This document shows, piece after piece, positions 5,386-46,691 of a stretch of DNA of 64,000 nucleotides. Origin of the DNA: Mytilus trossulus (taxonomy: Eukaryota). Each line of letters begins with the position of its first letter. Position 1 is the first letter of the stretch. The notes below the pieces were generated by a model. That model was not told where the DNA came from, did not search any database, and was given only the letters and a program-made list of their open reading frames with translations. The DNA lies in NCBI RefSeq assembly GCF_036588685.1, contig NC_086382.1:50197378-50261377 (forward strand), given 5' to 3'. The position numbers and the translations under genes were made by a program.

Positions 5386-5550
5386 GTAAAATCCCAAATT
5401 CAGAAGACCTCTCAGCCAGTGTTGACCTCTGTATCAGTTGCTTGGCAACAGTTTGATACTCCGCCTCCAGTTCAAGCTCCACAACAAATCACAGCTCTGT
5501 TTAATGGCTCCAGACTTGTGGTATATGGATTTGTCAGCAATTGTAAAATG
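5386..5550 (+). CDS. Exon of VIT/vWA-family gene (VKSQIQKTSQPVLTSVSVAWQQFDTPPPVQAPQQITALFNGSRLVVYGFVSNCKM)
   Basis: Acceptor ttgcag|gta at 5385/5386, donor atg|gtaatt at 5550/5551. Phase 0 to 0, so in frame with neighbouring exons. Confidence 0.5.
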
Positions 5551-6781: not shown

Positions 6782-6862
6782 GCTACTTTAAAGGCAGAGA
6801 TTGGTGGCCAAGAAATATCTACTGTTGTCTCTACGTCGGAGCTCAGTACTACTCAAGGACAG
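6782..6862 (+). CDS. Small Ser/Thr-rich exon (ATLKAEIGGQEISTVVSTSELSTTQGQ). Alternative acceptor at 6793/6794
   Basis: Polypyrimidine tract plus ataaag| acceptor, donor cag|gtaagg at 6862/6863. 81 nt, phase 0-0. Its 3' end and donor are the founding unit of the downstream 60-bp tandem array. Confidence 0.3.
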
Positions 6863-7576
6863 GTAAGGATAACAAGAAATATCTACTTTTGTCTCTACAT
6901 CTGAACTCAGTACTACTCAAGGACAGGTAAGGATAACAAGGAATATCTACTGTTGTCTCTACATCTGAACTCAGTACTACTCAAGGACAGGTAAGGATAA
7001 CAATAAATATCTACTGTTGTCTCTACATCTGAACTCAGTACTACTCAAGGACAGGTAAGGATAACAAGGAATATCTACTGTTGTCTCTACATCTGAACTC
7101 AGTACTACTCAAGGACAGGTAAGGATAACAAGAAATATCTACTGTTGTCTCTACATCTGAACTCAGTACTACTCAAGGACAGGTAAGGATAACAATGAAT
7201 ATCTACTGTTGTCTCTACATCTGAACTCAGTACTACTCAAGGACAGGTAAGGATAACAAGGAATATCTACTGTTGTCTCTACATCTGAACTCAGTACTAC
7301 TCAAGGACAGGTAAGGATAACAAGAAATATCTACTGTTGTCTCTACATCTGAACTCAGTACTACTCAAGGACAGGTAAGGATAACAAGAAATATCTACTG
7401 TTGTCTCTACATCTGAACTCAGTACTACTCAAGGACAGGTAAGGATAACAATAAATATCTACTGTTGTCTCTACATCTGAACTCAGTACTACTCAAGGAC
7501 AGGTAAGGATAACAAGAAATATCTACTTTTGTCTCTACATCGGAGCTCAGTACTACTCAAGGACAGGTAAGGATAA
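6812..7576 (+). repeat. 60-bp minisatellite, about 12.7 copies (unit aaatatctactgttgtctctacatctgaactcagtactactcaaggacaggtaaggataacaag)
   Basis: Direct tandem copies seen in the sequence. Each copy carries the exon 3' end plus the caggtaagg donor. Copies differ by single bases (aagaaat / aaggaat / aataaat / aatgaat). Confidence 0.9.
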
Positions 7577-7910
7577 TTTTACATCTGTTTTGGTTTTTGG
7601 AAACTTTGAACACAAATACAATGTTCTCACTTTCAGATCTGACATTAGTAATATCATGTGTATAAACTTGATATTGTTATGATCTATCTTGATAAAAAAA
7701 ACAATGGAGAAAATATAATTGTTACTGTGTTAAAATGGTCACAACTGTTCCTTTAGGGGGGAAGTCAGAGCTTTATACTAAACTGTTTTGAAGACAACAT
7801 GTTGACCACTAAATGTCTTCTTTCTTTGTTTGTTGCCCTGCTGTCATGTACTGAGAATCACCTTGTATTCATGAGATGGATATGATAATGTTGTTGTTTT
7901 TTTCTTGCAG

Positions 7911-7991
7911 AATCTTCACAGACTGACTGCTAAAGCAATAATCAGAGACTGGGAAGATGGAGTACTCTCCCCTGATAGTATTGACCATCAG
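7911..7991 (+). CDS. Exon of VIT/vWA-family gene (NLHRLTAKAIIRDWEDGVLSPDSIDHQ)
   Basis: Acceptor tttttttcttgcag at 7910, donor cag|gtaaaa at 7991/7992. 81 nt, phase 0-0. Confidence 0.5.
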
Positions 7992-8823: not shown

Positions 8824-8925
8824 TTGAAGAAGATGGACATGAAAGACTATATAATAGAACTGAGTAAGAAATACTCTATAGTCACTCAGCTGACAAGTTT
8901 TATAGCCGTGGAGAAAAGAGAAAAG
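8824..8925 (+). CDS. Exon of VIT/vWA-family gene with ITIH/VWA5A-like motif (LKKMDMKDYIIELSKKYSIVTQLTSFIAVEKREK)
   Basis: Acceptor ttttttttgcag at 8823, donor aag|gtaata at 8925/8926. The 'YS.VT.LTSF.AVE' pattern recalls the conserved C-terminal heavy-chain motif of inter-alpha-trypsin-inhibitor / VWA5 / PARP4 proteins (from memory). Confidence 0.55.
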
Positions 8926-10966: not shown

Positions 10967-11337
10967 GATATTCACCGGAGTTGAAATGAATACGGTGTAA
11001 GCAATTATAGTCAACCATACAGCCTTCAACAATTCGAAAAACCCATGTCGTATAATTGACTATTAAAGCTAATACTAAGTTATGTTGGTCAGATATTTTT
11101 AGAAATCTGTAAGAATAAATATGTCTAGCTATAAACTAATAATGAAATATATAGATTATTATGATGTAAAATCAGAATTAGATTTTTTGCATTTATTATT
11201 GTTAAGTTTTTATAGCAGATAAAAAATGATCATTTAAATTAATATAATTTTTGTGTAAATTGTAGAATAACTATTACTCTATATAAAAGTTTTCATCCTG
11301 TCAAATTTTCCACATAAGGGGTAAAAAATATATATCT

Positions 11338-11500
11338 GAAATGATCTGTATGCCTACCAATATGCATATGTGAAAGTTAAAAATATATCTGAATGATCTG
11401 TATGCCAACCAATATGCATATGTGAAAGTTAGAAATATATCTGAATGATCTGTATGCCAACCAATATGCATATGTGAAAGTTAAAAATATTTCTTTCATA
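11338..11500 (+). repeat. 3 x ~55-bp tandem repeat (aaaaatatatctgaatgatctgtatgccaaccaatatgcatatgtgaaagtta) immediately upstream of the acidic exon
   Basis: Seen in sequence. Confidence 0.8.
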
Positions 11501-11528: not shown

Positions 11529-11805
11529 GATGAAGTGCTTCATGCTGATGGACCATCAATACTGGAATTGGTTTCTGATGAAGATGTGGATACTTTGCAG
11601 TATTTAGGATGGGAAGGGGAAGTGGAACATTCTTATTATGAAATTGGCGACATGGAAGTGGAAGAGACTTATGATGAAGTTGTCGACATGGATATGGAAG
11701 ATACTGATGAAGAAGTTGTCTACATGGATAGGAAAGATTCTTACAACAAACGTTATGGCGCAGATATGGAAGAAGCCGCTCCAATGCATGATCTTTATTT
11801 ATGTG
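11529..11805 (+). CDS. Acidic exon (…SDEDVDTLQYLGWEGEVEHSYYEIGDMEVEETYDEVVDMDMEDTDEEVVYMD…). Either a host-gene exon or the ATG-initiated first exon (ATG at 11505) of the nested 14-3-3-like gene
   Basis: Open frame from 11478. Possible acceptor aag| at 11528 or start codon at 11505. Strong donor tgtg|gtaagt at 11805/11806. Ends in phase 1, compatible with both 13667 and 20982 acceptors. Confidence 0.35.
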
Positions 11806-12595: not shown

Positions 12596-13205
12596 GTGTC
12601 CATAGTACACGGATGCCCCACTTGCACTATCATTTAAAATGTTCAGTGGACCCTGAAATTGGGGTCAACTTTAAATTGGTATTAAAATTAGAAAGATCAT
12701 ATCATGGGGAACATGTGCACTAAGTTTCAAGTTGATTGGACTTCAACTTCATCAAAAACTACCTTGACCAAAAACTTTAACCTGAGCTTCACACTATCTT
12801 TTTCTTTGTTCAGTGGACCATGAAATTGGGGTCAGTACTTTAATTTGACAGTAAAATTAGAAAGATCATATCATAGGGAACATGTGTACTAAGTTTCAAG
12901 TTGATTGGATTTCAACTTCATCAAAAACTACCTTGACCAAAAACTTTAACCTGAGCTTCACACTATCTTTTTCTTTGTTCAGTGGACCATGGAATTGGGG
13001 TTAGTACTTTAATTTTACAGTAAAATTAGAAAGATCATATCATAGGGAACATGTGTACTAAGTTTCAAGTTGATTGGAATTTAACTTCATCAAAAACTAC
13101 CTTGACCAAAAACTTTAACCTGAAGTTGGACGAACGGATGAACAGACGAACGGAGGCACAGACCAGAAAACATAATGCCCCTCTACTATCGTAGGTGGGG
13201 CATAA
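12596..13205 (-). mobile_element. Interspersed repeat family 'tatgcccca..tac.atagta.aggggcattatg … ggttaaagtttttggtcaaggtag … gacacattcttgtt', inverted copy with internal ~155-bp triplication
   Basis: Other copies at 27055-27320, 31820-32470 (triplicated), 44126-44410 and 45930-46180. Confidence 0.6.
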
Positions 13206-14530: not shown

Positions 14531-14648
14531 GGCTTTGCTCATTGTTGAAGGTCATACAGTGACCTATAGTTGTTAACTTCTGTGTCATTTGGTCTCTTGT
14601 GGAGAGTTGTCTCATTGGCAATCATACCACATTTTCTTTTTTATATTT
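14531..14648 (+). mobile_element. SINE/MITE-like dispersed repeat (B orientation: gctttgctcattgttgaag…ctcattggcaatcataccacat)
   Basis: Same ~140-bp family recurs at 26921-27050 and 31701-31815, and in reverse at 5571-5708, 9428-9465, 15378-15430, 18591-18705, 19438-19475, 20051-20185, 40601-40660 and 47279-47345. Confidence 0.7.
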
Positions 14649-14667
14649 TGACCTTCCAAAATTCCAG

Positions 14668-15026
14668 GAAAGGAGAGTATTACCAATACTTAGCCGACTA
14701 TTACCAATACTTAAACAAAGCTGTCACAGGAAATGCTAAAAATGAAGCGACAGAAAAAAGTTTAGCAGCATATAACATTGCAAGTGATACAGCATCTACA
14801 GGTCTACCACCTACTCATCCTGTACATTTAGATTTAGCACTTAGTTTGTCTGCGTTTTATCACGATGTTCTCAACTCCCCAGATAAAGCATGTAGTATAG
14901 CAAAAACAGCATTTGATCAGGCAATATCAGAGCTTGATTGTTTAAGTGAAGAGAGCTATAAAGATTCAACGTTAAAAATGCAGTTGTTAAGAGATAATTT
15001 AACACTGTGGTCTGCTGAAGGTGAAG
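14668..15026 (+). CDS. 14-3-3-like protein, main exon ([21 protein letters not shown]…[76 protein letters not shown])
   Basis: Acceptor attccag at 14667, donor gaag|gtatgt at 15026/15027. Near-collinear with 14-3-3 helices 5-9 (…[60 protein letters not shown]…). Confidence 0.65.
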
Positions 15027-16954
15027 GTATGTTTAGAGTAGTTCGGTTAAGTTATCATAATTACTGTCTTGTCTGCATCAAAATTGCAGAAGTGCAAGAA
15101 AGTACCAAAATCATAACTTAGGCATGCTTAGACATTGATGGGGGGTGCATGACCTTTTTCGGGACGTTGGGATGGGTGGTTTTTTAACTTGGGATTTCAG
15201 GATTGATCCTTTCGGGATCCTGGAATTTTGTTTTCGAATTTGGGAATGTCAGGATTTAAATTTCTTTTCAAGATTTCATGTTTTTAAGCTTGGGATTTCA
15301 GGATCAGGACCCCTCTTACCCCCACCCCCTCTCATTAATAGCACCAACAACAATTGCTCATAAAGTATAAAGGAATTAGATGTGATATGATTACCAATGA
15401 GGCATCTATCCATATAAACCAAATGTAAAGATGTAAGCAATCTTTGGCAATGAGTAAAATCTGATCCATAAGGCAGTTTATATGAATGGCCTCAGTACAA
15501 ACAAAATGCTCAACCATTTAAATAAAGTAAAGCAATGGCCTGATTTACACTTGCAAGGTCTGAGAGTATATGATCATCTCAGCTAGGATTCGCCTTAATT
15601 TGACTTTATTTTTGTCTCACCTTGACAGAGTCAAAAAGCGACACATAGGTATGCTGTTTTCGGCATCAACAATGTATTAGTTTGTGATAAGGTCTAGTTT
15701 ATGGTGAACCACAAGTGGTAGGTCAATCATATTTGGTATGCATTTGTATAAGCATTGGCACATCTCATTTCCATAGAGATTTTTTGGCCCTGCCCCCTCA
15801 GTCATGGTCTATTGACTTCAACAACTTTTTCTTATTTTACATGTATTAGTTTGTGATTAAGTCAGTTTATGGGGAACCACAAGTGGTAGGCCAATGATAT
15901 TTGGTATGCAGTTGTATAACTAATGGCATATCTGATTTCATGGAAATAATTTGGATCCGCTCCCTAAGTCATGGTCTATTGACTTTGAAATTTTTTCTAA
16001 GTTATCATGTATTGTTTTGTGATTAGGTCAGTTGAATGGGAACCATTAGTGGTAGGCCAACGCTAATTAGTATTGGCACATCTCATTTCCATGTAAAATA
16101 TTTGGCCTCCCCCCTCAGTCACAGTTTAATATCTTTGAAACTTTTCTTAGTTTACATGTACATGTATTAGTTTGTGATTAGATCAGTTTAAGATGAACTT
16201 CTATTGGTAAGTCAATGATATTTGGTATGCATTTGCAAGTATCGTTTCCATGGAAATTGTATAGCCCCACCCCCCTCTTCATGGTTCATTGACTTTGAAA
16301 CGTTTACATAGTTTACAAGTTAATGTGTGTATTTAGGTTTGGGAACGACTTATACTAAGTCAATGGTATTTGGTATGCAGTTGTATTAGCATTGGCACAT
16401 CTCATTTACATGGAGATTGTTTAGCCATGTAACTCAGTCATGTTTCATTGACTTTGAATATTTGCATAACTTGTGTAAGATGTTAAAGTATTGCTATTTT
16501 GATTTCAACATTTGCATAATCAAAATTACAAAAAAGCGAGACATATCTCTGTGATAACAGTTCATCTTAGTTCATTAATTAATATTAATTTTTCATTTTT
16601 TTGGTGGCTCAGATACTCAGAAATAGGTGAACCCTATTTAATTATTTGTTCCCCTGACTTGTTTCCTCCGACATTGACCTTAATTTGTGGTACATTTTTT
16701 GTGGTTAGTTTCTTTTATAAAAAAGACTATATCATTGAGTATTGAATAATAACCATTTGTACGGGTTCATCTTGCCATGACATAATTTTCATGGTTCATT
16801 GGTCAACATTGAGTTTTAATGGTTAAGACTGTTTCTCAGACATTATAAGAAATTAATCAGAGGAAGATTGTGAGATGTACATTTGTGTCTTGCATAGTTC
16901 AACTGAAATTGAATTTATTTGTCACTGATCTTTGATAAACATGTAAACCATCAG

Positions 16955-17770: not shown

Positions 17771-17846
17771 TACTTTCATCATAATATTCAATTATTATCA
17801 CTTTAAGCTTTGGTATTACAGCATTCTTGTTAATATTTTATTTTAG

Positions 17847-18227
17847 ATGATGGCACTGATAGGCTAACATTTGGGACAGTAGAAAAGCAAAGTGCCACCA
17901 GGTTGGATGATTCAGACGAAGATTCTAATGAATTATTAGACTATGGTTCTTCATATTCATCAAGTGAGGATTTTGAGGAAGATGGAATTATTGCAGAAGC
18001 CACGAGTATGATTTCTGAGGAAGGCCAATATAATTCAAGCTCTGATGAAGAAATGCAGACTTTAGTATTAGATGCTGGATCATTCATGATGAAGGCAGGA
18101 TTTGCCGGAGATGATCATCCTAGAGCTAACTTCCCCACAGCTGTAGGTAGACCTAGACATCAAGGGGTGATGGTTGGAATGGGACAGAAGGATGCATATG
18201 TTGGATTTGAAGCCTGTGGAAAATCAG
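17847..18227 (+). CDS. Actin-like N-terminal segment preceded by an acidic/Ser-rich extension (…[62 protein letters not shown]). Gene fragment, cassette exon or pseudogene
   Basis: About 70% identity over some 55 residues to actin '[57 protein letters not shown]'. Possible acceptor ttttag at 17846, donor cag|gtataa at 18227/18228. Similarity ends at the donor. Confidence 0.5.
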
Positions 18228-18299
18228 GTATAAAACTTTCTGTTTAATCATAACGGTTTGATGCTGGGTTTATAATAAGGAAATGGAGCTACTTTATCA

Positions 18300-20185: not shown

Positions 20186-20981
20186 TAATACTGCAAATGA
20201 AAAGATTCAAATGAGAAAACTAACCTTCTGATATATGTTCAAAAAATATTACAGAAAAAAAGTATTTAACACAGCAACAAATGGCAACCACTGAATTATA
20301 GGATCCTTACTAGGGACAGGCACATACATACAGAAAGTTGCGGGGCTAAATATTTTAGCTGGCTGTCTGATTTATGGAAAATTTCATCTTAAGGAATGTT
20401 GACGTTCCATTTAAAATCCTCCATTACATTATATAAATATCTAAAATAGCCATTCAAAGGAGTTGGAAATATATTTAAGCACTTAACACTCATTCAAAAC
20501 CTTAATAAAAGGGTCTGACCTGAAAGATATAAAAAATTCAAATGAGAAAACTAACGAATTTAATTAAAAACAAAACAATTTATATAAAGACATTAATACA
20601 GATATGAACTAATACCCACTGAACGAGTACATTGGAAGAGGCACATAAAGAATGTGATAGGGTCAACATGTGTGTTAGTGTTCAACCCTCCCACATTGGT
20701 GAAAAAGCACAACATAATACCAAACTGTAAAAATTAGTTGCAATTGGCTTAGGTTAAGAGATAAGTATGAGTTATGAAAACAACTAATGTAAAAACAACG
20801 GACAAAAAAACAGAAATTAGAGTACTTGCAGTTAATATGTTTTGTGTTATTGTCATCATTTTGTCAAACATTTTCATATTTGCCTGGCAAGTCATAAATG
20901 TTGGCATAAATGATGAACAGCAGTTCACAATTAGACTTGACAAAACAAATGTGAACTCTATATATATACTCTATTTTGTAG

Positions 20982-22939
20982 ACATCTTGATGAAATATAG
21001 CAGGTCTCCAACCTCATCTTATGATGTAGATACAATAGAATCTTCCAATGAAGAAACAGTACCTGATGTACATCGAAAAGTAAGAGGAATGATTACAGGT
21101 GAACCACAATCCTCACCATATCCATCAAACATGTTATTTTTAGGTTCACCAAGAAAAATACCACCAACACAATCAGTTGCACCACCACCAATGGGATCCC
21201 AAAGGTTTTCTGATTGTTTATCAAAAGTAATACAACCAGTTACATCAACACTTCTGTCAGAAGAAGTGGAAGTTAAAGCATCAACATTTCATTCAAAAAG
21301 GATATCTTATGATCCACTAGGAGGAATGCCACCTTCACAACCACCAAGAGGAATGCCATCTTCACAACCACCAAGAGGAATGCCACCTCCACAACCACTT
21401 GGAGGAATGCCACCTCCACCACCACCAAGAGGAAAACATGTTGATGTGTCTTCATCAGTAATACCACCTGATCCATCAATACAATTTTACATTCCAATGT
21501 CTCCTGCACAAGCAATTCCAGAAGATACAGTTTATGATGCTTTTCCACCTCCTCCACCCCCTCTACAATCAACAGGAGGAATGCCACCTCCAGGGCCCCT
21601 ACAATCAAGAGGAATGCCACCTCCAGGGTCCCTACTATTAACAGAAATGCCACCTCCAGCACACCTACAACCAAGAGGAATACTACCTTCATTTCAATCA
21701 AAAGGAATGCCACCTTCAGCACATCTACAATCAAAAGGAATGCCACCTCCAGTGCCACTGCAATCAAAAGGGGTGCCACCTCCAGCGCCCCTACAATCAA
21801 GAGGAATGCCACCTCCAGCGCACCAACAATCAAGAGGAATGCCACCTCCAGCACACCTACAACCAAGAGGAATACTACCTTCATTTCAATCAAGAGGAAT
21901 GCCACCTCCAGCGCCCCTACAATCAAGAGGAATGCCACCTCCAGCGCACCAACAATCAAGAGGAATGCCACCTCCAGCACCTCTACAATCAAGAGAAATG
22001 CCACCGCATCTTTTCTCAACAAAAGGAATGCCACCACTTCCACCGCCTTTGTCATCACTAGGAATGCCAGTTATGAGCTCAGCATCAGAAATGCCACCAC
22101 TGCATCAAAAGGGAAAACCACAACCACTGTTACAGTCATCCAAACAAATGGACTCTTCAATGATTGGTGCACCACCACCTCCACTACTAGAAGAATTAAA
22201 CGATATGCTACCGGAACGAAGATATGGTCCTCCAGGGGGAATACCACCACCGCCACCACCACCAACAGGATTACCAATTCCAAAAACACCATTTGGTGTG
22301 GGGGGACTGTATGTTCCACCACAGGGACCACGAGAACCACCTCCATCATCAATACAAATGCAACCTTCCCCACAACAAATGTCAAAGAGTAGGTCTTTTC
22401 AACCAAAACAAAATCAACCCATTTCATCATCATCACCAAGAGCACAATTACTTTCAGACATTTCAGCTGCAACTTCAGCTAAAAAAATGAGTGGTTTAAC
22501 TGCTCCTGGAGGATCAGCTCGTGTTTTCGGGAGTATAACAAAATCACTATCAATAATTGAGAAGGATATACCTAGCCTGTTAGATTCTGCTATACCAGAA
22601 AGAAAATACCATAGGCTAGGGATGAATTCTGTAATAAAACAACATGCAATAGCAAGTGAATACAAAAGGGAAATGCCTCTCACTAAAGACAACCAAGATA
22701 CGTTTGTCTACAAGGAGAAGCAGAGGGCAACTTCATCACATTTTGGTTCATTTAATTTGGAAGAGAAATCCACAGATCTAGAACAGCCGATATATTTTGG
22801 TTCCTTTGGTTTGCAAGAGAAATCCACAGAACAGCCAGCATATGAATGTAGTGTAAAATCTACCAAAATTCTTGACCAGTACACTGACATGACTAGACCT
22901 GATAGCATTCAAAAACAAAGTAATACTGAAGAATTAATG
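20982..22939 (+). CDS. Giant proline-rich exon: FH1-like poly-Pro tracts, 13 x 39-bp in-frame repeats (GMPPPAPLQSR), a WH2-like motif (PRAQLLSDISAATSAKKM) and a Ser-rich tail
   Basis: Acceptor ctctattttgtag at 20981, donor aatg|gtaagt at 22939/22940. 1958-nt open frame. The ORF's hydrophobic N-terminus (20774-20981) is most likely intron. Confidence 0.6.
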
Positions 22940-23151
22940 GTAAGTAAAAAGATACCTGTACTTATAATATGAATGTCAAATGTATTATTAATTTGAACCA
23001 ATCTTAGATAATGGCAAATGAAAAAAATAGTTTAATTTGAACCAATTTTAGATAATATCAAAGGAATAGTTTGTTTAATCTGAACCAATTTTGAAAACTT
23101 AATTTAAAAGTGTTGTTTTTATAATTTGCAAAATCTCATTTCCACCATCAG

Positions 23152-29147: not shown

Positions 29148-31232
29148 CATTTTTATACGACCGCAAATTTTGAAAAAATTTTCGTCGTATACTGCTATCA
29201 CGTTTGCGTCGTCGTCGTCGTCGTCCGAATACTTTTAGTTTTCGCACTCTAACTTAAGTAAAAGTGAATAGAAATCTATGAAATTTTAACACAAGGTTTA
29301 TGACAATAAAAGGAAGGCTGGTATTGATTTTGGGAGTTTTGGTCCCAACATTTTAGGAATTAGGGGCCAAAAAGGGCCCAAATAAGCATTTTCTTGGTTT
29401 TCGCACTATAACTTTAGTTTAAGTTAATAGAAATCTATGAAATTTTGACACAAGGTTTATGACCACAAAAGAAAGGTTGGGATTGATTTTGGGAGTTTTG
29501 GTTTCAACAGTTTAGGAATTAGGGGCCACAAAAGGGCCCAAATAAGCATTATTTTTGGTTTTCGCACAATAACTTTAGTTAAAGTAAATAGAAATCAATG
29601 AAATTTAAACACAATGTTTATGACCACAAAAGGAAGGTTGGTATTGATTTTGGGAGTTTCGGTCCCAACAGTTTAGGAATTAGGGGCCAAAAAGGGACCC
29701 AAATAAGCATTTTTCTTGGTTTTCGCACCATAGCGTTAGTATAAGTAAATAGAAATCTATGAAATTTAAACACAAGGTTTATGACTATAAAAGGAAGGTT
29801 GGTATTGATTTTGGGAGTTTTGGTCCCAACATTTTAGGAATTAGGGGCCAAAAAGGGCCCAAATAAGCATTTTCTTGGTTTTCGCACTATAACTTTAGTT
29901 TAAGTTAATAGAAATCTATGAAATTTTGACACAAGGTTTATGACCACAAAAGAAAGGTTGGGATTGATTTTGGGAGTTTTGGTTTCAACAGTTTAGGAAT
30001 TAGGGGCCACAAAAGGGCCCAAATAAGCATTATTTTTGGTTTTCGCACAATAACTTTAGTTAAAGTAAATAGAAATCAATGAAATTTAAACACAATGTTT
30101 ATGACCACAAAAGGAAGGTTGGTATTGATTTTGGGAGTTTCGGTCCCAACAGTTTAGGAATTAGGGGCCAAAAAGGGACCCAAATAAGCATTTTTCTTGG
30201 TTTTCGCACCATAGCGTTAGTATAAGTAAATAGAAATCTATGAAATTTAAACACAAGGTTTATGACTATAAAAGGAAGGTTGGTATTGATTTTGGGAGTT
30301 TTGGTCCCAACAGTTAAGGAAAAAGGGGCCCAAAGGGTCCAAAATTAAACTTTGTTTGATTTCATCAAAATTGAATAATTGGGGTTCTTTAATATGCCGA
30401 ATCTAACTGTGTATGTAGATTCTTAATTTTTGGTCCCTTTTTCAAATTGGTCTACATTAAGGTCCAAAGGGTCCAAAATTAAACTTAGTTTGATTTTAAC
30501 AAAAATTGAAACCTGGGGGTTCTTTGATATGCTGAATCTAAAAATGTACTTAGATTTTTGATTATTGACCCAGTTTTCAAGTTGGCCCAAATCGAGGTCC
30601 AAAATTAAACATTGTTTGATTTCATCAAAAATTGAATAATTGGGGTTCTTTGATATGCCAAATCTAACTGTGTATGTAGATTCTTAATTTTTGGTCCAGT
30701 TTTAAAATTGGTCTAAATTAAAGTGCAAAGGGTCCAAAATTAAACTAAGTTTGATTTTAACAAAAATTAAATTCTTGGGCCTCTTTGATATGCTGAATCT
30801 AAACATGTACTTAGATTTTTGATTATGGGCCCAGTTTTCAAGTTGGTCCTAATCCGGATCTAAAATTATTATATTAAGTATTGTGCAATAGCAAGTCTTT
30901 TCAATTGCACAGTATTGTGCAATGGCAAGAAATATCTAATTTCACAATATTGTGAAATAGCAAATTTTTTTTTAATTAAGAGTTATCTTTCTTTGTCCAG
31001 TATAGTAAGCAAGAAATATCTGCAAGAATTTTTTTTAATTGGAGTTATCTTTCTTTGTCCATAATCAACTTAAATCTTTGTTATATACAATATACAATGT
31101 TTATTAACTTTTTACTACCAACTGATAAATTTAAAGAATCCAGCTTGAATGTTGTGTCCATACTTGCCCCAACCGTTCAGGGTTCAACCTCTGCGGGGTA
31201 TAAAGCTACGCCCTGCGGAGCATCTGGTTAGA
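29148..31232 (+). mobile_element. Composite element, copy 1: head 'tttttatacgaccgcaaattttg…(gtc)6', ~160-bp satellite in a 3-variant higher-order array, ~130-bp 'ggtccaaaattaaac' satellite, 33-bp 'attgcacagtattgcgcaat' repeats, and tail '…gcttgaatgttgtgtccatacttgccccaaccgttcagggttcaacctctgcgg…'
   Basis: Near-identical architecture at 35296-37222, and 5' portion at 44597-45660. Internal 480-bp period visible (29260~29740~30220). Confidence 0.7.
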
Positions 31233-31819: not shown

Positions 31820-32470
31820 TTTTTATGCCCCACCTACAATAGTAAAGGGGTATTATATTTTCTGGTCTGTGGCTTTGTTTCGTTCATCCATCTGTTTGTT
31901 CGTCCGTCTGTTCGTTCGTTCGCAGGTTAAAGTTTTTGGTCAAGGTAGTTTTTTATGAAGCTGAAGTACAATCAACTTGAAACTTAGTACACTTGTTGCT
32001 TATGATATGATCTTTCTAATTCTAAAGCCAAATTAGACCTTTGAGTCTTTGACCCACATTTCATGGTCAACTGAACATAGAAAATGAAAGTGAGAGTTTC
32101 AGGTTAAAGTTTTTGGTCAAGGTAGTTTTTGATGAAGCTGAAGTACAATCAACTTGAAACTTAGTACACTTGTTGCTTATGATATGATTTTTCTAATCTT
32201 AAAGCCAAATTAGACTTTTGACTCCAATTTCACGGTCCACTGAACATAGAAAATGAAAGTGGGAGTTTCAGGTTAAAGTTTTTGGTCAAGGTAGTTTTTG
32301 ATGAAGCTGAAGTCCAATCGACTCGAAATTTAGTACACTTGATGCTTATGATATGACCTTTTTAATTTTAAAGCCAAATTAGACTTTTGATCCAATTTCA
32401 CGGTTCATGGAACATGGAAAATGATAGTGCCAGTGGGGCATCCCTATACTTTGGACACATTCTTGTTATT
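31820..32470 (+). mobile_element. Same 'tatgcccca…gggcattat' repeat family, copy with 3 internal tandem units
   Basis: Seen in sequence. Confidence 0.6.
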
Positions 32471-35295: not shown

Positions 35296-37222
35296 TTTTT
35301 ATATGACCGCAAATTTTGAAAAAAATTTCGTCGTATATTGCTATCACGTTGGCGTCGTCGTCGTCGTCGTCCGAATACTTTTAGTTTTCGCATTCTAACT
35401 TTAGTAAAAGTGGATATAAATCTATAAAATTTTATCACAAGGTTTATGACCACAAAAGGAAGGTTGGTATAGATTTTGGGAGTTTTGGTCCCAACATTTT
35501 AGGAATTAGGGGCCAAAAGGGCCCAAATAAGCATTTTCTTGGTTTTCGCACTTTAACTTTAGTTTAAGTTAATAGAAATCTATGAAATTTTGACACAAGG
35601 TTTATGACCACAAAAGAAAGGTTGGGATTGATTTTGGGAGTTTGTAGGAATTAGGGGCCAAAAAAGGGCCCAAATAAGCATTATTCTTGGTTTTCGCACA
35701 ATAACTTTAGTTTAAGTAAATAGAAAATAATGAAATTTAAACACAATGTTTATGACCACAAAAGGAAGGTTGGGATTGATTTTGGGAGTTTAGGTCCCAA
35801 CAGTTTAGGAATTAGGGGCCAAAAAGGGACCCAAATAAGCATTTTTCTTGGTTTTCGCACCATAACTTTAGTATAAGTAAATAGAAATCTATGAAATTTA
35901 AACACAAGGTTTATGACCATAAAAGGAAGGTTGGTAATGATTTTGGGAGTTTTGGTCCAAACAGTTTAGGAATAAGGGGCCCAAAGGGTCCAAAATTAAA
36001 CTTTGTTTGATTTCATCAAAATTGAATAATTGGGGTTCTTTGATATGCCGAATCTAACTGTGTATGTAGATTTTTAACTTTTGGTCCCGTTTTCAAATTG
36101 GTCTACATTAAGGTCCAAAGGGTCCAAAATTAAACTTCGTTTGATTTTGACAAAAAATTAATCGGTTGGGTTCTTTGATATGCTGAATCTAAAAATGTAC
36201 TTAGATTCTTGATTATCGGCCCAGTTTTCAAGTTGGTCCAATTAAACTTTGTTTGATTTCATCAAAAATTGAATAAATGGGGTTCTTTGATATGCCAAAT
36301 CTAACTGTGTATGTAGATTCCTCATTTTTGGTCTTGTTTTCAAATTGGTCTACATTAAAGTCCAAAGGGTCCAAAATTAAACTTAGTTTGATTTTAACAA
36401 AAATTGAAATCTTGGGGTTCTTTGATATGCTGAATCCAAACATGTACTTAGATTTTTGATTATGGGCCCAGTTTTCAAGTTTGTCCAAATCAGGATATAA
36501 AATTATTATATTAAGTTTTGTGCAATAGCAAGTCTTTTCAATTGCACAGTATTGCGCAATGGCAAGAAATATCTTATTGCAAAATATTGTGAAATAGCAA
36601 TTTTGTTTTTAATTAGAGTTATCTTTCTTTGTCCAGAATAGTAAGCAAGAAATATCTAATTGTAAGAATTTTTTTTATTTGGAGTTATCTTTCTTTGTCC
36701 AGAATCAACTTAAATCTTTGTTATATATACAATATACAATGTATATTCACTTTTTACTACCAACTGATAAATTAAAATAATCTTTACCATTCAGTGATAA
36801 CAAGCAGTTTTTTTACATCTTAATATTTTATGATGTATTTAAATGAGTAGTAATTGTTGCAAACTCCATTAGAAATTTTAATTGAGATTAGTTTTGGAAT
36901 TAGGGAAAGGGGGATGTGATTAAAAAAATTGGGTTCAATTTTCTCATTTGAAATTTCATAAATAAAAAGAAAATTTCTTCAAACATTTTTTTGAGAGGAA
37001 TAATATTCAACAGCATAGTGAATTGCTCTAAGAGAAAACAAAAATTTTAATTTCATTAGAACACATTCATTCTGTGTCAGAAACCTATGCTGTGTCAACT
37101 ATTTAATCACAATCCAAATTTAGAGCTGAATCCAGCTTGAATGTTGTGTCCATACTTGCCCCAACCGTTCAGGGTTCAACCTCTGCGGTCGTATAAAGCT
37201 ATGCCCTGCGGAGCATCTAGTT
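35296..37222 (+). mobile_element. Composite satellite-bearing element, copy 2. Abuts and truncates the TRIM-NHL fragment
   Basis: Same head, satellite blocks and tail as copy 1. Confidence 0.7.
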
Positions 37223-41999: not shown

Positions 42000-43845
42000 T
42001 AGCTCACCTGGCCTAAAAGGCCAAGTGAGCTTTTCTCATCACTTGGCGTCCGTCGTCTTTCGTCCGTCGTCTGTCGTCCGTCAGCTGTCGTTGTCCGTCA
42101 TTGTTAACTTTTACAAAAATCTTCTCCTCTGAAACTACTAGGCCAAATTAAACCAAACTTGGCCACAATCATCATTGATGTATCTAGTTTAAAATTTAAA
42201 ATGTTTTTTGACCCGGCCAACCAACCAAGATGGCCGCCATTGCTAAAAATAGAACATAGCGGTAAAATGCAGTTTTTGGCTTATAACTCAAAAACCAAAG
42301 CATTTAGAGCAAATCTGACAAGGGGTAAAATTGTTTATCAGGTCAAGATCTATCTGCCCTGAAATTTTCAGATGAATCAAACATTCCATTGTTGGGTTGC
42401 TGCCCCTATATTGGTAATTTTAAGGAAATTTTACTGTTTTTGGTTATTATCTTGAATATTATTATAGATGGAGATAAACTGTAAACAGCAATAATGTTCA
42501 GCAAAGTAAGATTTACAAATAAGTCAACATGACCAAAATGGTCAGTAGACCCCTTTAGGAGTTATTGCCCTTTATAGTCAATTTTTAACCATTTTTCGTA
42601 AATCTCCATGATCTTTTACAAAAATCTTCTTCTCTGAAACTACCGGGCCAAATTAATCCAAACTTGGCCACAATCATCATTGATGTATCTAGTTTAAAAA
42701 TTGTGTTTTTTTGACCTGGCCAACCAACCAAGATGGCTGCCACGGCTAAAAATAGAACATGGAGGTTAAATGCAGTTTTTGGTTATTACTCAAAAACCAA
42801 AGCATTTAGAGCAAATCTGACAAGGGGTAAAATTGTTAATCTGGTCAAGATCTATCTGCCCTGAAATTTTAAGATGAATGGGACAACCCGTTGTTGGGTT
42901 GCTGCCCATGAATTGGTAATTTTAAGGAAATTTTGCTGTTTTTGGATATTATCTTGAATATTATTATGGTTAGAGACACCTTTTCTGTAAACAGCAAAAA
43001 TGTTCAGCAAAGTAAGATTTACAAATAAGTCAACAGGACCAAAATGGTCAGTTGACCCCTTTAGGAGTTATTGCCCTTTATAGTAAATTTTTAACCATTT
43101 TTCATTAATCTTAGTTAACTTTTACAAAAATCTTCTCCTCTGAAACTACTGGGCCAAATTTTACCAAACATAGCCAGAATCATTATTAGGCTATCTAGTT
43201 TAAAAATTGTGTTTTGTGACCGTGCAAACCAACCAAGATAGCCGCTACGGCTAAAAATAGAACATAGGGGTCAATTGCAGTTTTTGGCTTACATGTATAA
43301 CTCAAAAACCAAAGCATTTAGAGCAAAACTGACACGGGGTAAAATTGTTTATCTGGTCAAGATCTACCTGCCCTGAAATTTTTAGATGAATCGGACAAAG
43401 CATTGTTAGGTTGCTGCCCCTAAATTGGTAATTTTAAGGAAATTTTGCTGTTTTGGGTTATTATCTTGAATATTATTATAGACAGAGATAAACTTTAAAT
43501 AGCAATAAATTCCAATAATGTACAGCAATTTAAGACTCAAAAATAAGTCAAAATGACCCAAATGGTCAATTGACCCCCTAAGAAGTTATTGTCCTTTATT
43601 ATCAATTTTTAACAATATTCATAAAATTTGTAAATTTTTACTAACATTTTCCACTGAAACTACACGGACAAGTTCATTATAGATAGAGTTAATTGTAAGC
43701 ATCAAGAATGTTCAGTAAAGTAAGATGTACAAACACATCACAATCACCTAAACACAATTTTGTCATGAACTGTCTGCTTCCTTTGTTTAATTCACATATA
43801 CCAAGGTGAGCGACACAGGCTCTTTAGAGCCTCTAGTTTGTGAGG
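42000..43845 (+). mobile_element. 'SL' family, complete copy with 3 tandem units
   Basis: Head at 42000-42060, units at 42105, 42605 and 43125, tail 43800-43845. Confidence 0.65.
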
Positions 43846-44596: not shown

Positions 44597-45660
44597 TTTT
44601 TATACGACATGACGTTGGTGTCGATGTTGTTGTCGTTGTCCGAAGACACATTGGTTTTTTCGCACTATAACTTTAGTTTAAGTAAATAGAAATCTATGAA
44701 ATTTAAACACAAGGTTTATGACCACAAAAGGAAGGTTGGGATTGATTTTGGGAGTTTTGGTCCAAATATTTTAGGAATTAGGGGCCAAAAAACGGCCCAA
44801 ATAAGCATTTTTTTGGTTTTCGCACAATAACTTTAGTATATGCAAATAGAAATCTATGAAATTTAAACACAACGTTTATGAACACAAAAGGAAGGTTGGG
44901 ATTGATTTTGGGTGTTTTGGTCCCAACATTTTATGTTGATTGTTGGTTGCTTTACACCGCATTAGTACAAAAAGGCTATATCATGGCGAGTTTTAGGAAC
45001 AGTTTAGGAATTAGGGGCCAAAAAGGGGCCCAAATAAGCATTTTTCCCAGGTTTTCGCACAATAACTTTAGTATAAGTAAATAGAAATCTATGAATTTTA
45101 AACACAAGGTTTATGACCATAAAAGGAAGGTTGGGATTGATTTTGGGAGTTTGGTCCCAACAGTTTAGGAATTAGGTGCCCAAAGGGTCCAAAATTACAC
45201 TTTGTTTAATTTCATAAAAAAATTGAATAATTGGGGTTCTTTGAAATGCTAAATCTAACTCAGTGTATGTAGATTCTTAATTTTTGGTCCCGTTTTCAAA
45301 TTGGTCTACATTAAGGTCCAAAGGGTCCAAAATTAAGCTTAGTTTGATTTTAACAAAAATGGAATTCTTGGGGTTCTTTGATATGCTGAATCTAAACATG
45401 TACTTAGATTTTTGATTATGGGCCCAGTTTTCAAGTTGGTCCAAATCGGGTCCAAAATTAAACTTTGTTTGATTTCAACAAAAATTGAATTCTTGGGGTT
45501 CTTTGATATGCTGAATCTAAACATGTACTTAGATTTTTGATTATGGGCCCAGTTTTCAAGTTGGTCTAAATCGGGGTCCAAAATTAAACTTTGTTTGATT
45601 TTCACAAAAATGGAATTCTTTGGGTTCTTTAATAAGCTGAATCTAAACATGTATTAAGAT
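44597..45660 (+). mobile_element. Composite satellite-bearing element, copy 3 (head plus 160-bp and 130-bp satellites, no tail). Small foreign insert at 44930-44995
   Basis: Head variant 'tttttatacgacatgacgttggtgtcgatgttgttgtcgttgtcc'. 44933-44995 is the reverse complement of 40421-40490. Confidence 0.65.
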
Positions 45661-46691
45661 TTTTATACGACCCCAAATTTTTTTTTGTGTCAAATATAAG
45701 ATTAGATTGGAAACTTTTACATTAAATATTAATGCCTTGAACAATGGTAATTTCGAGAAACAATAAAATTATGTTAGAAATATATGAATTGATGGGTATT
45801 TTAAAACCTTCTCACTTAGGAACAGACTATCTTTCTGCGCTTGATAAGATACACATAGAAACATGGCAATCAAAATTTGCATCTTGTAAGGGAAGAACAC
45901 TGAAATTTTTGTTCTAAACATGTAATTTTTATGCCCCATTTATGGGCATTATGTTATCTGGTATTTACGTACTTTTGTTCGTCTGTCTGCCCCTCATCTG
46001 GTTAAAATTTTGGGTCAAGGTAGATTTTGATGAAGTTGAAGATCAATCAACTTTAAACTTATTACACATGTTTCTTATGCTATGATCTTTCTATTTTCAA
46101 TGCCATATTAGATTTTTACCACTGAATTTGGAAAAAGATATTATTGTGAGTGGAACATCCCATTCTTGTGTATAAATAGATGATAAATATCATTTGAACA
46201 CTATTCAATATTTTCCAGGCACTTATTTATTGAAATGCATGAAACAAAAATCTAATCAGTGTCAGAATCTGAGCAAGTTCACATGCAGACAGGGAAAATG
46301 TCCAAAAGATATCATTTTTTGCATAAAATGGTCCAAATATAATTTGACCTTGAACTTAAACGGTAAAGGCAAACAATTTGATATTTTTCTTGGAAAAAGC
46401 ACTTGCTTGTGTTCTATAATTTTCAAAATATCATGAATTATGGCAATGGTTCTCATTGTTAATGAAATTTTAGATGTGGAGATAATATTGCTTTAATTTT
46501 ATTTTCTCAGATGAACCCTTTATTATACATTTTAAATTGAAAAAGTTCAAATGTTCTACAAAGTTTTACTCACTATGGTTATTTTTCACCCTGTATTGTG
46601 CTATAAATTGTATAGTTACTCATAGAATGATTTATTGAAAACCCAAAGGCATTGCACTACTTTGACGTAATCCTTTTTTATTTTAATGTAG

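Follow-up and report, generated by a model that had tools for sequence, protein, structure and literature searches.

It has long been asked how the spliceosome chooses among identical 5′ splice sites, and the published answers conflict. In cells, the minisatellite of the human F7 gene is spliced from its upstream-most site, whereas in vitro, when two consensus donors are offered, splicing goes to the intron-proximal one. The window, which is the whole stretch of 64,000 nucleotides of Mytilus trossulus DNA analysed here, contains an exon whose 3′ end and donor are repeated in tandem, forming a natural twelve-way contest of strong donors in a lophotrochozoan, for which the single-copy alleles of relatives serve as controls. 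Which of these donors would be used, and what would the array do to the gene that carries it?

Arrays of this kind are already known from human genes, and the mussel locus adds a further case. In F7, CBS, IFI6, LMNB2 and PDGFA, the first monomer of a minisatellite lies across an exon-intron boundary (PMC1557585). The upstream-most donor alone is used in F7 (a 37-bp VNTR in intron 7), LMNB2 and PDGFA; in CBS and IFI6, the authentic donor is constitutively joined by two pseudo-sites (PMC1557585). A mutational series in F7 favours a 5′-to-3′ preference for the first functional site (Borensztajn et al. 2006, PMC1557585), and the F7 pseudo-sites competed only once they had been made perfect consensus (PMC1557585). 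No molluscan example of such a minisatellite was found in the literature on Mytilus intronic minisatellites.

The gene and its exon C

An exhaustive HMMER search with the concatenated exons of the window as the query returned 993 homologues. The top homologue, CAG2205451.1 (P0012, "PARP2_3_4 [Mytilus edulis]"), is 98% identical over 208 residues in one stretch, covering exons A-F. This protein, which is a gene model, has 1730 amino acids with BRCT, PARP, VIT and VWA domains. Other relatives, from Saccostrea, carry the source name "protein mono-ADP-ribosyltransferase PARP4-like". The neighbours of exon C, exons A, B, D, E and F, were mapped from open frames and splice sites. The parts of the gene are as follows, a slash marking a splice junction here and below.

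52 to 151, + strand: exon A of the PARP4-like gene (…AIANKHVLKAMSRLGAGSFEYFDSQSKSKWENK), from tblastn with residues 968-1008 of P0012 and from its splice sites as read
5386 to 5550, + strand: exon B (VKSQIQKTSQPVLTSVSVAWQQFDTPPPVQAPQQITALFNGSRLVVYGFVSNCKM), donor ATG/GTAATT, with 1 synonymous difference from M. edulis
6782 to 6862, + strand: exon C, 81 nt, ATLKAEIGGQEISTVVSTSELSTTQGQ, acceptor ttttttataAAG/, from tblastn and homologue conservation
7577 to 7910, + strand: remainder of intron C-D, unique sequence, from comparison with M. edulis and a second Mytilus-like genome (L001)
7911 to 7991, + strand: exon D, 81 nt, NLHRLTAKAIIRDWEDGVLSPDSIDHQ, acceptor ttcttgcag/, donor CAG/GTAAAA, from tblastn and splice sites
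8824 to 8925, + strand: exon E, LKKMDMKDYIIELSKKYSIVTQLTSFIAVEKREK, from tblastn and splice sites
From 11529, + strand: exon F, from an open frame and a splice site

Since the exons of the window cover only the part of the gene that follows the VWA domain, the characteristic features of PARP4 (BRCT, PARP catalytic, VIT and VWA domains and a conserved region after VWA) are found by orthology, the four domains being seen in the 98%-identical M. edulis protein. A Pfam search with concatenated exons A-F gave no domain above threshold because the stretch lies after the VWA domain, and the family was named from the homologues. These relationships identify the window gene as a Mytilus orthologue of PARP4 (vault PARP).

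Exon C is in phase 0/0, is preceded by ttttttataaag/ and terminates in CAG/GTAAGG. Its translation is 100% identical to residues 1063-1089 of P0012 (tblastn), where the sequence runs ...SNCKM/ATLKAEIGGQEISTVVSTSELSTTQGQ/NLHRLTAKAIIRDWEDG..., the same join of exons C and D that the first donor would give. The 27-residue segment is free of insertions and deletions in all 11 of the further homologues inspected, which include oyster proteins and others of vertebrate appearance, with identities ranging from 67% to 33%. In a contig from a more distant mollusc (L005), exons C and D form a single uninterrupted exon, in frame, and in a spliced contig (L002) the C/D, D/E and next junctions are intron-free. 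Between the window and M. edulis, the codons of exons A-E show 14 synonymous and 2 nonsynonymous differences, and those of exon C show 4 and 0. The other exons of the PARP4 gene within the window are intact. On this comparative evidence, exon C is a genuine and conserved coding exon. The sequence-only reading presupposed that the exon at 6782-6862 is expressed; an unexpressed exon is very unlikely because of the conservation in homologues, the C/D junctions, the synonymous bias and the intact remaining exons. A word-indexed protein search with the 54-residue peptide of exons C and D returned one short open reading frame on a Logan contig and missed CAG2205451.1, even though the exact 54-residue query lies within it; negatives from that search are uninformative.

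The acceptor of exon C has an A at position -3 (window 6779; ttttttataAAG/G), where M. edulis and L001 have a C (tttttatacAG/G). This C-to-A change is on the same haplotype as the donor array, and it might weaken exon definition.

Several features of the gene beyond exon E were also recorded. A 52-bp array of 3.2 copies (11326-11494) ends 35 bp before the exon F acceptor at 11529. Within exon F there is an in-frame 36-bp array of 3.5 copies (11618-11743) with EVEETYDEVVDM-like units, because of which the exon differs in length from that of M. edulis. An open frame at 14570-15118 (+), in the span of the PARP4-like gene, matches the C-terminal half of the Pfam 14-3-3 profile (E 1.5e-39, positions 106-223 of 223). 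At least one PARP4 homologue, P0015, also ends, behind its exon F region, in a tail that resembles 14-3-3, and the frame may be an alternative terminal exon and not a separate gene or pseudogene. At 17834-18244 (+), an exon with an acidic stretch continues into an N-terminal fragment of actin (Pfam Actin, E 2.7e-12, profile positions 2-54). The fragment is also present in the M. edulis PARP4 gene model and in homologues P0016 and P0021, which points to a conserved insertion of an actin fragment in the C-terminal region of PARP4 in invertebrates. A 733-codon open frame at 20771-22969 (+), with proline repeats of the PPRGMPPP(Q/A) type, contains in-frame 27- and 33-bp tandem repeats (21314-21434, 21551-22005); it has no Pfam match, aligns with the C-terminal end of the M. 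edulis PARP4 model at only 46% and appears to be a fast-evolving repetitive tail.

Structure of the array and its reading frames

The array is located at the 3′ end of exon C and extends into the following intron. Its features are as follows.

6809 to 7576, + strand: 12-copy head-to-tail minisatellite with a 64-bp unit, from Tandem Repeats Finder, the layout of units in register and a 27-mer scan
6863 to 6868, + strand: authentic, upstream-most 5′ splice site CAG/GTAAGG, from the QGQ/NLH junction in P0012, spliced L002 and L005
6902 to 6904, + strand: TGA, the first in-frame stop if a downstream donor is used, from the layout in register; the open reading frame ends at 6901
6927 to 7572, + strand: 11 reiterated pseudo-donors, identical from -22 to +10, from the layout in register and the 27-mer scan

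Tandem Repeats Finder gives a period of 64, 12.0 copies, 97% matches, no indels and a score of 1438. The sequence-only reading had the unit as 60 bp, which is corrected here to 64 bp, and it had the array begin at 6782, which is the start of the exon; the array proper begins at 6809. Its recognition of the exon 3′ end with its donor as the repeated element holds, since unit 1 consists of the terminal 54 nt of exon C (6782-6862) and 10 nt of intron. Its count of about 12 donor copies is made precise as a total of 12, the authentic donor and 11 reiterations.

Aligned in register, each unit has the form CAAGAAATATCTACTGTTGTCTCTACATCTGAACTCAGTACTACTCAAGGACAG/GTAAGGATAA. CAG/GTAAGGATAA is found 12 times at a spacing of exactly 64 bp, and CAGGTAAGGATAA has 12 occurrences, at 6860+64k, and none elsewhere in the window. 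A junction-spanning 27-mer has 12 matches at three or fewer mismatches in the whole window, where 0.00 are expected from shuffles. The GT dinucleotides of the pseudo-donors start at 6927, 6991, 7055, 7119, 7183, 7247, 7311, 7375, 7439, 7503 and 7567, and the donors of the array fit MAG/GURAGU at eight of nine positions. The locus therefore has three structural features of boundary-spanning minisatellites: a head-to-tail array of units of tens of base pairs (12.0 copies of period 64), a genuine exon 3′ end with its authentic donor in the first monomer (exon C), and an identical donor in the downstream monomers (12 x CAGGTAAGGATAA).

Differences among the 12 units are restricted to unit positions 4, 5, 16, 27, 30 and 33, and the 3′ 31 nt of the unit (CTCAGTACTACTCAAGGACAGGTAAGGATAA) are invariant in all of them. 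Edge copies 1 and 12 have TCGGAG and inner copies 2-11 have TCTGAA, while a T at position 16 is common to copies 2 and 12. Positions 4-5 read, in the order of the copies, GA, GA, GG, TA, GG, GA, TG, GG, GA, GA, TA and GA, a pattern that is non-periodic. The mosaic of edge and inner variants is what would be expected from unequal exchange or conversion with homogenisation of the inner copies, and the internal identity of 97% indicates a young array. A reconstruction of the order of duplications from the TCGGAG/TCTGAA difference and the T at position 16 was abandoned, as each scenario needs at least three events or conversion.

Read past donor 1 in the frame of the exon, the sequence is GTA AGG ATA ACA AGA AAT ATC TAC TTT TGT CTC TAC ATC TGA, which adds VRITRNIYFCLYI before the stop. 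The claim that use of a downstream donor would bring in an in-frame stop is thus correct, the stop being the TGA at 6902-6904. Donor 1 gives an exon of 81 nt, and donors 2-12 would give exons of 145-785 nt. Since 64 = 3x21+1, the frame shifts between successive units, and the array has stops in all three frames. A transcript spliced from any of donors 2-12 would meet a premature stop far ahead of the exon junctions that follow; the conserved protein, with its in-frame join of exons C and D, would be obtained from donor 1 only. A coding role for the inner units was rejected in view of the stops in all frames and the CAATAA and CAATGA variants. Inner copies have CAATAA, CAATGA or CAAGGA where exon C has the codon pair CAAGAA, and because of these replacements they are taken to be free of coding constraint. 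Folding of the RNA of exon C with 2.5 units gave a z-score of -0.09, and no structural signal that would mask or expose particular donors was seen in this segment.

Copy number in related mussels

The reference locus of M. edulis (L006; GCA_905397895.1, CAJPWZ010001022.1) is collinear with the window in both flanks. It contains just the one unit, at 42514-42577, with unique intron sequence immediately after it, and no tandem repeat was reported there. A single unit is likewise found in L001, a Logan contig that comes from another Mytilus-like genome and is 95% identical to M. edulis. The 12 copies of the window thus compare with one copy each in the M. edulis reference and L001, genomes that are 3-13% diverged. 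Copy number varies between genomes, and the locus may also be length-polymorphic within a population, as the sequence-only reading expected. Because M. edulis and L001 each have a single unit, the array is a derived expansion in the lineage or haplotype of the window. The remainder of intron C-D (7577-7910) lacks about 70 bp that are found in both M. edulis and L001.

M. edulis has a second PARP4-like gene model, CAG2205447.1 (L007; CAJPWZ010001022.1, 3468991-3492072), which has 775 amino acids, looks degraded, is fused to EF-hand sequence, lies about 40 kb from the main one and is 88% identical to the window exons. No array at exon C or D was found in either M. edulis copy (L006, L007).

The idea that the unit is a fragment of a dispersed satellite or transposon was rejected: within the window it occurs only here, and M. 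edulis has it once, as exon and intron sequence. In JGI metagenome contigs, exact-pattern scans gave 0 matches for the array-specific unit junction and 0 for a degenerate exon C pattern, and Rfam gave no family match over the whole window. Tandem arrays with a period of at least 20 bp and at least 2.5 copies number 20 in the window and cover 10.2% of it, so that the mutational supply of such arrays in the mussel genome is large. Some of the other arrays in the window are large and satellite-like, with periods of 125-169 bp, and are found on both strands (12640-13123, 29238-30868, 31923-32429, 35499-36488, 45315-45664); they look like the families of dispersed tandem-repeat elements that are typical of bivalve genomes.

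A comparable array is present at exon D in a related mussel. In contig L004 (ENA ERZ27229325 k141_180878), which starts inside the array, a 94-bp unit is repeated at least 4.7 times at 1-453; the unit joins the 3′ end of exon D (IRDWEDGVLSPDSVDHQ) to the donor CAG/GTATGT and about 40 nt of intron. Like the exon C array, it lies in a PARP4-like gene, at the adjacent exon, and combines an exon 3′ end, a donor and intron. Unlike the window array, it has a unit of 94 bp in at least 4.7 copies that are more diverged (90% identical), and in one of them the donor is mutated to CAG/ATATGT. A contig from another sample (L008, ERZ27229330), 98.6% identical to L004 over 1.7 kb, has a single copy at 292-374. 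Because the array is present in L004 and absent from L008, it is interpreted as a presence/absence polymorphism, and these sequences indicate repeated origins, and polymorphism, of boundary-spanning arrays in the PARP4-like genes of mytilids. Contig L002, from a third sample and from a species other than that of the window, is 100% identical to L004 in exon E and is the spliced form with one unit. It was rejected as proof of first-donor use on an array allele, as its sample differs from that of L004 and L008 has the single-copy allele.

Choice among the twelve donors

The array is probably a near-neutral or mildly deleterious VNTR in which donor 1 is chosen mainly or exclusively and the others are silent or leaky pseudo-donors, with no evolved regulator. 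A 64-bp segment over the boundary of exon C and its intron, with 54 nt from the exon and 10 nt from the intron, would have been duplicated. Slippage or unequal exchange would then have raised the number to 12 copies and homogenised the inner ones. Unit 1 would go on providing the functional exon end and its donor, with units 2-12 left in the intron as exact pseudo-donors. Productive mRNA would require the upstream-most donor, 81 nt from the acceptor, and any other donor would give a transcript with a premature stop. The preference for the upstream-most donor is suggested by analogy with F7, LMNB2 and PDGFA, and the effect on fitness would be neutral to mildly deleterious. Low-level leakage to isoforms with premature stops is possible, and some leakage is plausible because the array donors match the consensus at eight of nine positions. 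Taken by itself, the array most likely represents a nearly neutral structural variant that is transient, in a genome rich in repeats.

The splicing precedents used for this comparison, all of them mammalian, resemble the mussel locus to different degrees. In F7, as in the mussel, the first monomer lies over the exon-intron boundary, identical pseudo-donors come after the authentic donor, copy number varies (5-9 in F7, between genomes in the mussel) and most pseudo-sites would give a premature stop. The F7 monomer, however, takes in just 4 nt of exon, and its donor, UGG/GUGGGU, is weak, compared with 54 nt and the near-consensus CAG/GUAAGG in the mussel unit. The mussel array also differs in its 12 copies and its bivalve host, and in that donor use is known by experiment in F7 and is here a prediction by analogy. 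In CBS intron 13 (15-20 monomers) and IFI6 (6-16) intron 2 (26 monomers), donors are likewise reiterated by a boundary-spanning minisatellite, but in the mussel the use of a pseudo-site would meet a stop 40 nt downstream. LMNB2 (100-bp x 10-15) and PDGF (81-bp x 16-18) are similar in unit size and copy number, with the array after the authentic donor; the authentic donor is the only one reported to be used in them, and in the mussel its use is predicted.

A rather improbable alternative is substantial competition among the donors. Many transcripts would be spliced from a donor further downstream, perhaps from the intron-proximal last one, and would take in the TGA at 6902-6904; they would either be broken down or yield a truncated protein. 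In that case the array would amount to a hypomorphic allele, or would throttle PARP4 expression according to its copy number, in line with what the sequence-only reading had proposed. Twelve identical near-consensus donors, the weaker A at -3 of the exon C acceptor, the two additional pseudo-sites used in CBS and IFI6, the shift of splicing to perfect-consensus pseudo-sites in F7 constructs and the intron-proximal choice between two consensus donors in vitro all speak for it. On the other side, F7, LMNB2 and PDGFA are spliced from the upstream-most donor, and donor 1 gives an exon of 81 nt as against 145-785 nt for the others. In a conserved regulator of unproductive splicing (poison site/NMD), the site that introduces the premature stop is conserved in relatives; here it is absent from both L006 and L001. 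A role of the array in generating NMD isoforms, or in regulation by donor competition, is therefore the less likely option, because an array that close relatives lack is no conserved regulatory device, and because the reiterated donors are silent in F7, LMNB2 and PDGFA, and use in CBS and IFI6 extends to just the two that come next.

Mis-assembly of a locus that truly has one or few units is very improbable. Tandem repeats are error-prone in assemblies and relatives carry one unit, but the variant pattern is non-periodic, the edge copies are distinct, there are no indels, both flanks are collinear with M. edulis, the 768-bp array fits inside a single long read, and a comparable array was assembled independently at the next exon in another mussel. 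It is extremely improbable that the array is excised unit by unit, each ...GGACAG/GTAAGG junction serving as both a 3′ and a 5′ splice site and leaving no trace in the mRNA. Recursive splice sites (ratchet points) are juxtaposed 3′ and 5′ splice motifs, AG/GTRAGT after a pyrimidine tract and a branch point, typically in very long introns. The juxtaposed motif, AG/GTAAGG, is present at every unit boundary of the mussel array and resembles theirs, but the 20 nt before each AG (ctcagtactactcaaggacag) are purine-rich and mixed and not pyrimidine-rich, reading of the sequence gave no clear match to a branch point, the 64-nt step is very short, and the intron has only about 1 kb, whereas recursive sites are typical of very long introns. 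The motif would follow simply from duplication of the exon end.

In a further reading, the 12 near-consensus donors would act as a copy-number-dependent throttle: downstream donors would take a sizeable part of the splicing, array length would set the amount of productive vault-PARP mRNA per allele, and boundary arrays would be recurrent in mytilid PARP4, at exon C in the window and at exon D in L004. This reading is quite unlikely. If it were true, the boundary arrays of mytilids would be a natural test of the upstream-scanning and intron-proximal rules of 5′ splice-site choice outside mammals. For genome annotation, the array is a place where gene predictors could pick the wrong donor.
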